DNA of 64,000 nucleotides from Escherichia phage SF. Shown piece after piece: positions 15,289-16,149 of this stretch. The translations under genes were made by a program, and so were the position numbers. The DNA lies in the sequence record MH359124; one strand, given 5' to 3'. Positions within the stretch are counted from its first letter, which is position 1, and the number at the start of each line of letters is the position of its first letter. The notes under the pieces were generated by a model that was not told the origin of the DNA, made no database searches, and saw only the letters and a program-made list of their open reading frames with translations.

Positions 15289-15362
15289 GGCCCTGTAGCT
15301 CAACGGTTAGCAGCAGTCCCCTCATAAGGGAAAGGTTACCAGTTCGAATCTGGTCTGGGTCA
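15289..15362 (+). tRNA. tRNA with anticodon CAT (Met or lysidine-modified Ile)
   Basis: Hand fold: acceptor GGCCCTG/CTGGGTC (one mismatch, one GU), D-loop with GG, anticodon loop CTCATAA, T-arm ACCAG-TTCGAAT-CTGGT. Confidence 0.7.
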
Positions 15363-15368
15363 TATATT

Positions 15369-15445
15369 CGAGGCATAGCTCAATTGTATAGAGCAACGGA
15401 CTTCTAATCCGTAGGTTGAAGGTTAGAATCCTTCTGTCTCGACCA
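15369..15445 (+). tRNA. tRNA-Arg (anticodon TCT), encoded CCA
   Basis: Hand fold: acceptor CGAGGCA/TGTCTCG, D-arm GCTC-AATTGTATA-GAGC, anticodon stem ACGGA/TCCGT loop CTTCTAA, T-arm GAAGG-TTAGAAT-CCTTC, 3' ACCA. Confidence 0.85.
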
Positions 15446-15463
15446 ACTTTAAGTGAGGAAAAT

Positions 15464-15808
15464 ATGAAAGGCAACATTTATCTGGTAGTTCATGATTTAA
15501 CGTTTTATTTTAACGAATATGATACAGTTATTTCTCATCGATTGATTAATTCGCTGTATCAGCATGCCGATTACATCTATGTTCAAAATGAATTTGGTCA
15601 TTGGAAGTTCATTAAAAATCGTTCTGGGTTAACTAGTTTTGAATACTTTGACCGTAAAGACCTTTTAAACGAAATCCCATTGCAACATCGGTTCCAGAAA
15701 CGTGAATCATTATATTATTGCCGCCATATACCAAACGCCGAATGTGTTAATGAAGCGATTAATCTATGGCGTCGGCGTCGAGAGCAAATTGATGATATGC
15801 CAAAATAA
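15464..15808 (+). CDS. hypothetical protein
   Basis: Start moved to ATG after GAGGAAAA (MKGNIYLVVHD); track ORF N-terminal extension overlaps tRNA-Arg. Confidence 0.55.
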   Translation: MKGNIYLVVHDLTFYFNEYDTVISHRLINSLYQHADYIYVQNEFGHWKFIKNRSGLTSFEYFDRKDLLNEIPLQHRFQKRESLYYCRHIPNAECVNEAINLWRRRREQIDDMPK

Positions 15809-15809
15809 G

Positions 15810-16120
15810 AAGCCGGGTCGCTACCGGTAAGTCGTCGGACTGATGTTCCCTGCGTAAGGACTGGTCTTAAATAAATCTTTATGATTTGTTAATATCCCCT
15901 TACATCACAGCAGAAACGGCGCACAGAATTATCGATTCGAGGAAATATCTTTGCCGTAAGCCGAGTAGCGTTTTTGACGGAACGTTCGGATATGGTCGAG
16001 ATATGGCCTTTTAAAAATATTGAGTAGCGTCAACTGCTTAATAACCGGGTTCGAATCCCGGCGTTTCGTACAAACACTTGCCTTAGCAGGTGGAACCCCG
16101 ACAAGGTTGCCGCAAGGCAT
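15810..16120 (+). ncRNA. tRNA-like structured small RNA region (possible rnaC/rnaD-type stable RNAs)
   Basis: No convincing protein ORF; canonical T-arm CCGGG-TTCGAAT-CCCGG at 16045-16061 with possible acceptor pairing CGGAACG/CGTTTCG; multiple hairpins; ends at strong terminator. Confidence 0.35.
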
Positions 16121-16149
16121 AGCCCCTTCCGAAAGGTTGGGGCTTTTTG
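16121..16149 (+). terminator. rho-independent terminator AGCCCC-TTCCGAAAGGTT-GGGGCT-TTTTT (repeat copy 1)
   Basis: GC stem plus T-run. Confidence 0.7.

Follow-up and report, generated by a model that had tools for sequence, protein, structure and literature searches.

A probable Mosigvirus form of the phage T4 tRNA and stable-RNA operon, with a predicted tRNA-like fold for its rnaC

A 64,000-nucleotide (nt) stretch of the genome of Escherichia phage SF (record MH359124; the whole stretch is hereafter the window) was analysed around a short locus of transfer RNAs (tRNAs) and stable RNAs on its plus strand. The results indicate that positions 15199-16148 very probably (roughly 0.9) make up one transcription unit, the Mosigvirus form of the tRNA/stable-RNA operon of phage T4. 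Its gene order is tRNA-Ile(CAU), tRNA-Arg(UCU), an open reading frame (ORF) of 114 amino acids (aa), rnaD (species 2 RNA), rnaC (species 1 RNA), a conserved trailer and a terminator. All of its RNA parts except tRNA-Arg are orthologous to their T4 counterparts. The window itself is a piece of an RB69-type T-even phage genome (Mosigvirus): 781 phage records matched a 1-kb stretch round the locus, the best of them RB69-like coliphages at 96-98% identity, and the matching records ATK47 and SA79RD are classified as Mosigvirus. The parts of the unit are as follows.

15199..15226, plus strand: MotA-type middle-promoter-like motif tttTGCTTTA-N12-TATTAT (pattern match 15202-15226; conserved with T4)
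15289..15362, plus strand: tRNA with anticodon CAT, orthologue of T4 tRNA-Ile (ARAGORN; Rfam RF00005, 52.4 bits; no encoded CCA)
15369..15445, plus strand: tRNA-Arg(TCT) (ARAGORN; Rfam RF00005, 71.1 bits; CCA encoded)
15464..15808, plus strand: 114-aa ORF of the RB69ORF150c family (ORF list; phrog_3355)
15806..15925, plus strand: rnaD (species 2 RNA) orthologue (alignment to T4 71053-71171; 84.3% identical)
15932..16070, plus strand: rnaC (species 1 RNA) orthologue, 139 nt (137/139 identical to T4 rnaC, 98.6%)
16071..16120, plus strand: conserved 3' trailer with two small hairpins (fold; kept beside rnaD in Dhakaviruses that have no rnaC)
16121..16148, plus strand: intrinsic terminator AGCCCC..CC-GAAA-GG..GGGGCU followed by UUUU (fold; conserved in T4)

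Positions 15803-16153 aligned with the rnaD/rnaC block of T4 at 91.5% identity (E 1e-140), so the likeness is not due to chance, while the neighbouring protein-coding blocks were 73-86% identical to T4. A profile of rnaC built without the window gave a single window match (15932-16075, E 2.5e-42; nhmmer), as did one of rnaD built in the same way (15807-15924, E 1.1e-32). T4 rnaC, at T4 70908-71046, is also 139 nt long and lies on the same strand, with rnaD before it and the same trailer and terminator after it. The two rnaC sequences differ by only two substitutions, one of which turns a U.G of the long arm into C-G, and rnaC is thus better conserved than the coding blocks that flank it. It is annotated at the homologous place in ATK47, a phage of the same genus, and in the records of T2L, RB5 and Aplg8. 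In T4, both RNAC and RNAD have been detected, rnaC having been checked on Northern blots (PMC9697503), and their roles are called unknown in reviews and recent papers (PMC3014915, PMC9697503). No functional study of species I RNA and no original sequence papers were found in the literature searched.

T4 rnaD, which is 119 nt long (T4 71053-71171), shares with that of the window the same 5' module (CCGGGUCGCUACCGGUAAGUCGUCGGACUGAUGUUCCCUG), the same 3' module (AUCACAGCAGAAACGGCGCAC) and the same place before rnaC, from which it is separated by a 6-nt spacer in both phages, whereas the central hairpin has diverged (84% identity overall). The RNAalifold consensus of rnaD consists of a 5' hairpin (CCGG-GUCGCUA-CCGG, with a covarying closing pair), a long irregular stem closed by GUCGUCG/CGGCGCAC and a hypervariable central hairpin that is completely different between lineages; five pairs showed compensatory changes, and the fold of the single sequence was unexceptional (z-score -1.66). 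A pairing of rnaD with the trailer (GUCGG/CCGAC and GUUCC/GGAAC), by which rnaC would be an insertion in a larger RNA, was dropped because both segments are invariant and offer no covariation, and it is further disfavoured by RNAalifold, which puts the same bases into a helix within rnaD. An rnaD annotation is present in the RB3 record. When a T4-like phage was left to adapt to host ECOR34, every line had the same single-nucleotide polymorphism (SNP) in rnaD, according to a 2025 evolution study (PMC12685909).

The consensus of T4 MotA-dependent middle promoters is (a/t)3 TGCTTtA, a spacing of 11-13 nt, and TAtaAT (PMC1524935), and by sequence pattern a motif of this type is present at 15199-15226. 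The pattern TGCTTNA-N11-13-TANNNT occurred 13 times in the window, mostly on the plus strand, against 3.4 expected, and none of 100 shuffles reached 13; further plus-strand MotA-box patterns are found, for example, at 30185, 43102, 45347, 50410, 53103 and 60614. The motif at the head of the locus sits in a block (15190-15237), just past the upstream ORF, whose T4 homologue lies between trna.2 and tRNA-Gln and which is kept in T4, SA79RD and a Dhakavirus. The leader between the motif and the first tRNA (15237-15288) is likewise conserved with T4 and the Dhakavirus, and can form a hairpin (AAAGGUGC...GUGCCUUU). No late promoter (TATAAATA) was found on the plus strand between 12031 and 25573. At the other end, the hairpin at 16121-16144 has six strong outer pairs and a GAAA loop, and its U run extends to 16148; a simple terminator scan passed over it, owing to a UU/UU mismatch inside the hairpin. 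The record of phage D5505 annotates a terminator at the homologous place, and trailer and terminator together (16071-16148) were 92.3% identical to T4.

In T4, a middle promoter just upstream of the cluster is the main source of its transcription (Brok-Volchanskaya et al. 2008, citing Broida and Abelson; PMC2330249). That transcription terminates after the species I gene, and the tRNAs and the species I and II RNAs all derive from the primary transcript (PMC2330249). Homology with T4 suggests that transcription in the window would start at about 15233, under a MotA-dependent middle promoter (15202-15226), and stop at 16148, and that the resulting precursor of about 0.9 kb would be processed into mature RNAs by RNase P, RNase E, 3' exonucleases and the CCA-adding enzyme of the host.

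The fold of rnaC was examined by covariation in a set of 18 distinct sequences from 10 genera, with positions numbered from 15932. RNAalifold and minimum free energy (MFE) folds of single sequences agreed on a tRNA-like cloverleaf, and the rnaC of the window had an MFE of -50.2 kcal/mol (z-score -4.55). Its ends form an acceptor stem of 7 base pairs (bp), positions 2-8 with 131-137 (3' strand 16062-16068). A long arm of about 65 nt occupies the D-arm position and is followed by a conserved U/A-rich linker and by a 10-bp arm bearing the 6-nt loop CGUCAA, which a single nucleotide parts from the T-arm. Three parts of this fold can be placed in the window.

15974..15979, plus strand: rnaC loop L1, UUGACG, at the tip of the long arm (exact reverse complement of L2)
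16028..16033, plus strand: rnaC loop L2, CGUCAA, in the 10-bp arm (exact reverse complement of L1)
16045..16061, plus strand: rnaC T-arm CCGGG-UUCGAAU-CCCGG (sequence; abuts the 3' strand of the acceptor stem; 2/5 pairs covary)

Thirteen of the 24 core pairs were changed on both sides, as compared to 0-2 in slid controls, and 0 of 500 shuffles reached 13. Where the acceptor stem has two U.U mismatches, phiR1-RT and PM2 have Watson-Crick pairs. There are two versions of the long arm, unrelated in sequence, of which the T4-type version was 98-100% paired with three compensatory pairs; in MFE folds the long arms of CF-SP2 and PM2 formed the same rod, and the folds of VPA32 and PWKp16 differed. 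The tRNA-Sec-like Rfam alignment would instead form the acceptor from the 3' end and an internal ACGGAACG; this was rejected, as such a helix breaks in phiR1-RT and has an A.C in EcS1, whereas covariation supports the pairing of the 3' end with the 5' end. All sequences end in a tail U-N-C-A, which is mostly UACA but UUCA in phiR1-RT, while PWKp16 and PM2 have a true UCCA; this suggests that the 3' end may be matured in a tRNA-like manner. In the T4 annotation, the last base of rnaC is the A of UA.

The loops L1 and L2 are complementary throughout. Among 34 distinct sequences every change in them was compensatory (the Tegunavirus clade has UUGAUG/CAUCAA and the Marfavirus clade UUGGCG/CGCCAA), with no one-sided change and 99% of cells paired; the complementarity is limited to six bases in most lineages. 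These observations suggest that the tip of the long arm probably kisses the loop of the 10-bp arm, a contact of which the literature searched makes no mention. In the Karamvirus VPA32, the long-arm tip and the 10-bp arm are complementary over 13 nt (AGUAGUUGACGCU / AGCGUCAACUACU), and the MFE fold of its rnaC (L064 1201-1339) has an alternative long-range helix in place of the cloverleaf.

Neither rnaC nor rnaD had a matching model in Rfam at the gathering threshold or at E<=10, and the only weak Rfam match in the ORF-free stretch was tRNA-Sec-like (16.6 bits, E 3.4). Against RF00005, rnaC (15932-16070) gave no match even at E<=10, ARAGORN made no call there, and no YrlA match was found over it (Rfam, E<=10). 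With 139 nt, a 6-nt loop and a 65-nt arm in the D position, it does not have the form of a canonical tRNA, and its modelled structure is that of a tRNA mimic, not a tRNA. An earlier note on this DNA, made from the letters alone, had pointed to a canonical T-arm (CCGGG-TTCGAAT-CCCGG) and a strong terminator after the tRNAs, both of which are real: the former lies at 16045-16061, inside rnaC, and the latter is the G+C-rich GAAA hairpin with its U run at 16121-16148. Its proposal of either rnaC/rnaD-type RNAs or a degenerate tRNA holds in its first half, given the T4 order and strand of the two genes; the second half is not supported, given the lack of an RF00005 match and the compensatory changes. 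The DNA directly after the tRNAs, which it took to be free of ORFs over 300 nt, in fact holds the 114-aa ORF with its Shine-Dalgarno sequence (15464-15808), and is ORF-free only from about 15809. The idea that a blank result with covariance models should count as refutation was unsound, since Rfam is blank for rnaC and rnaD while their T4 homology is unambiguous, so that such a test would give a false negative.

The tRNA-like features also bear on whether the stretch is a functionless, decaying remnant, a degenerate tRNA or pseudogene surviving from a cluster of eight tRNAs that was reduced to two. A perfect T-arm beside an acceptor-like stem, the weak tRNA-Sec-like match and the wide variation of tRNA content among relatives would all fit such an origin. 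Decay is nevertheless very improbable: rnaC has kept 98.6% identity with T4 where coding DNA has kept 73-86%, compensatory changes maintain its helices across 10 genera and already contradict decay, T4 rnaC is a detected RNA, and the gene occurs alike in phages with at least eight tRNAs and in those with one or two.

A coding function was considered as well, as many GenBank records place hypothetical proteins here. The stretch without a conserved ORF runs from 15809 to 16193; in the window it does contain a 74-aa minus-strand ORF over rnaC (15929-16153) and plus-strand ORFs of 42-49 aa, and many related records have hypothetical-protein features here. The 74-aa ORF, however, has no counterpart in T4 and shrinks to 33 aa in ATK47 and to 21-25 aa in others, no reading frame is conserved among relatives, and substitutions track base pairing rather than codons. 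That the stretch encodes small proteins is therefore extremely unlikely, and the 'hypothetical protein' coding sequences over rnaD and rnaC in many records are best read as annotation artefacts. In the SA79RD record, a WebGeSTer 'terminator' (L003 2345-2371) corresponds to the T-arm and acceptor strand of rnaC and is an artefact of annotation too.

Blast and profile searches found rnaC in further genera. It was present without rnaD in Kagamiyamavirus EcS1, Kanagawavirus IME523, Karamvirus Pet-CM3-4 and VPA32, Tegunavirus phiR1-RT, Gelderlandvirus CF-SP2, Mosugukvirus PM2 and Marfavirus PWKp16, and together with rnaD in Gaprivervirus VR7. In EcS1, Pet-CM3-4, CF-SP2 and VPA32 it takes up an interval of about 150 nt between two tRNA genes where nothing is annotated, with a few nt left on each side. 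In the Kagamiyama-, Kanagawa-, Karam-, Teguna-, Gelderland-, Mosuguk- and Marfaviruses it lies within or next to the tRNA clusters and is unannotated. When IMG/VR and metagenomes were scanned with patterns for distant relatives, only contigs of T4-like enterobacterial phages and chance matches came back, and on this sequence evidence the family appears to be confined to T4-like phages of enterobacteria. The unannotated rnaC homologues and the Dhakavirus units described below are located as follows.

L004, 1506-1644: unannotated rnaC homologue
L005, 1500-1639: unannotated rnaC homologue
L006, 1502-1641: unannotated rnaC homologue
L007, 1495-1633: unannotated rnaC homologue
L008, 1428-1566: unannotated rnaC homologue
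L064, 1201-1339: unannotated rnaC homologue
L065, 1200-1339: unannotated rnaC homologue
L066, 1166-1304: unannotated rnaC homologue
L009, 1420-1740: Dhakavirus rnaD-trailer unit
L070, 385-640: Dhakavirus rnaD-trailer unit

The Dhakaviruses EcWhh-1 and dhabil keep rnaD, trailer and terminator, and rnaC is precisely missing (...GGCGCACC|GAACACTTGCC...); in dhabil, rnaD directly follows tRNA-Arg. Rfam gave no match on a Dhakavirus rnaD-trailer unit. Since rnaC can be missing while rnaD and the trailer are kept, the three elements are separable modules.

The 114-aa ORF that precedes rnaD in the window matches the phage protein family phrog_3355 (E 4.9e-50), is preceded by a GAGGA ribosome-binding site and is annotated as a homologue of RB69ORF150c in ATK47 and SA79RD; sequence searches of Pfam, NCBIfam, PADLOC and PDB gave no significant match. 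The order tRNA-Arg, ORF, rnaD also occurs in the Tequatroviruses D5505, SHBML-50-1 and G4498, and in IME340 the ORF and rnaD can be seen. Neither T4 nor Dhakavirus dhabil has the ORF at this site. Its last codons (CCAAAATAA) resemble the tRNA-Arg 3' end and spacer (ACCAAACAA) of phages without the ORF. As its stop codon overlaps the first bases of rnaD, and as the block that directly follows it closes with a terminator, rnaD, rnaC and the trailer could be imagined to be a mere structured 3' untranslated region and terminator of the ORF that stabilise its mRNA. This is most unlikely, because in T4 and dhabil the block follows tRNA-Arg with no ORF between them, other genera have rnaC between tRNA genes without rnaD, ORF or trailer, and the Dhakaviruses hold rnaD and the trailer without rnaC.

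ARAGORN found exactly two tRNAs and no tmRNA in the whole window (Rfam, too, gave no tmRNA match there at gathering or at E<=10), and both lie well above the RF00005 gathering score of 29 bits. The earlier note had rightly seen two adjacent tRNAs, CAT and Arg-TCT, and in the former a G-A mismatch in the anticodon stem and a 3-bp D-stem: the cmscan alignment has the non-standard pairs G27.A43 and C13.C22, the latter leaving a D-stem of 3 bp, and also U6.U67. T4 tRNA-Ile, to which the CAT tRNA is identical at 72 of 74 positions (97.3%), carries the same three mismatches, so they are features of a working tRNA and not of decay. This identity with T4 tRNA-Ile also argues that the CAT tRNA is a lysidine-type tRNA-Ile that reads AUA, and not a tRNA-Met. 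Its acceptor stem begins GGCCC, like that of E. coli ileX, which is only indicative. In every T4-like genome that bears tRNAs, a CAU tRNA with IleRS signatures has been assigned to the lysidine-C34 class reading AUA (Nolan 2006, PMC1524935), and it is suggested from the literature that host TilS would convert C34 of the present tRNA to lysidine so that AUA can be read.

In the 76 ORFs of the window, ATA and AGA are used at 12.0 and 7.5 per 1000 codons, respectively. AUA and AGA are the two rarest sense codons in E. coli, and we infer that this rarity fits the keeping of exactly these two decoders. The CAU tRNA and tRNA-Arg(UCU), which reads AGA, may thus supply the AT-rich phage with decoders for codons that are rare in E. 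coli and common in its own genes.

The tRNA-Arg(TCT) of the window was only 54% identical to that of T4, and therefore represents a different allele or sequence lineage. T-even phages carry two unrelated tRNA-Arg(UCU) alleles, the window (RB69) type and the T4 type; the window type recurs in Tequatrovirus G4498, Dhakavirus dhabil has the same 3' end, and the tRNA-Arg(UCU) of Dhakavirus EcWhh-1 is of the T4 type. The alleles compared were these.

15369-15445 of the window: tRNA-Arg(UCU)
L001, 2174-2248: tRNA-Arg(UCU)
L009, L070 and L072: tRNA-Arg(UCU)

Two tRNAs, 'Met' and Arg, have been published for the RB69-like phage phiC120 (PMC8022965), and the annotations of ATK47 and SA79RD agree with the two-tRNA state. 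The locus is thus already known, two tRNAs being the documented RB69-like state and rnaC and rnaD being annotated in related records, and by itself it changes nothing. What is added here is a covariation-backed cloverleaf for rnaC, a candidate kissing loop, the U-N-C-A tail and unannotated rnaC in other genera.

As to what rnaC does, we can only speculate, with low confidence, that it is a processing, CCA-addition or decoy substrate of a factor, from host or phage, that recognises tRNAs by their acceptor/T-arm half. It is possible, though unlikely in our estimate, that rnaC is the first known representative of a family of tRNA mimics in phages, as yet uncatalogued, and serves as a decoy or sponge for a tRNA-recognising host factor, with the body locked by the kissing loop. 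The acceptor/T-arm half and the U-N-C-A tail would then give entry to RNase P, CCA addition and possibly charging or EF-Tu binding, and candidates for the target would include a defence nuclease that attacks tRNAs and an enzyme that processes or modifies them. Such a family would span at least 10 genera of T4-like phages, in which rnaC is usually embedded like a tRNA in tRNA operons and mostly unannotated. If true, a decoy role would explain both the near-invariance of rnaC and the convergent host-adaptation SNP in the neighbouring rnaD (PMC12685909).

Several points weigh against the picture drawn here of the unit and of rnaC. Deletions of the tRNA region of T4 grow on laboratory strains, so any function would be conditional. 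Most rnaC acceptor stems carry the two U.U mismatches, which makes the tRNA mimicry imperfect, and the Kanagawavirus rnaC has the non-canonical T-loop UGCAUGC in place of UUCGAAU, with the strands of its T-stem intact.

L005, about 1613-1629 (IME523), and L057: Kanagawavirus T-loop UGCAUGC (sequence)

Support for the kissing loop comes from just two independent compensatory events, and the contact needs the long arm to fold back. For the unit as a whole, promoter, terminator and processing in the window phage are inferred by transfer from T4, and T4 transcriptomics classed RNAC and RNAD as late RNAs (PMC9697503), which is in tension with the middle-type motif that is the sole promoter motif found.

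RNAC and RNAD are abundant RNAs of T4 and have been known since the 1970s. Because Rfam has no model for rnaC or rnaD, automated pipelines miss them or overlay spurious 'hypothetical protein' and 'terminator' features. The comparative data provide a testable structure for rnaC, with its tRNA-like core, kissing loop and CCA-like tail, and, if the decoy role were true, rnaC would join the phage tRNAs that are now linked to escape from tRNA-targeting defences.

Compared with the T4 cluster, which has eight tRNAs in two subclusters with segB in between, the window has the same upstream promoter block, first-to-last orientation and terminator and an orthologous tRNA-Ile. It is without the Gln, Leu, Gly, Pro, Ser and Thr tRNAs of T4 and without segB, and carries the extra ORF. 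The order Ile, segB, Arg, rnaD, rnaC of T4, in which rnaD follows tRNA-Arg after 1-2 nt, is replaced in the window by Ile, Arg, ORF, rnaD, rnaC. As compared to a canonical tRNA, rnaC has the 7-bp acceptor stem continuous with a 5-bp T-stem, a T-loop of the GUUCGAAUC type, the 3' U-N-C-A tail and a tRNA-style placement within tRNA operons, while it is without the 7-nt anticodon loop and without a D-arm. Among tRNA mimics, it can be set beside the tRNA-like domain of tmRNA, YrlA and other Y RNA-like molecules, and the tRNA-like structures of plant viruses. The tRNA-like module of YrlA is internal, and in rnaC it is the ends of the RNA that form the acceptor stem.

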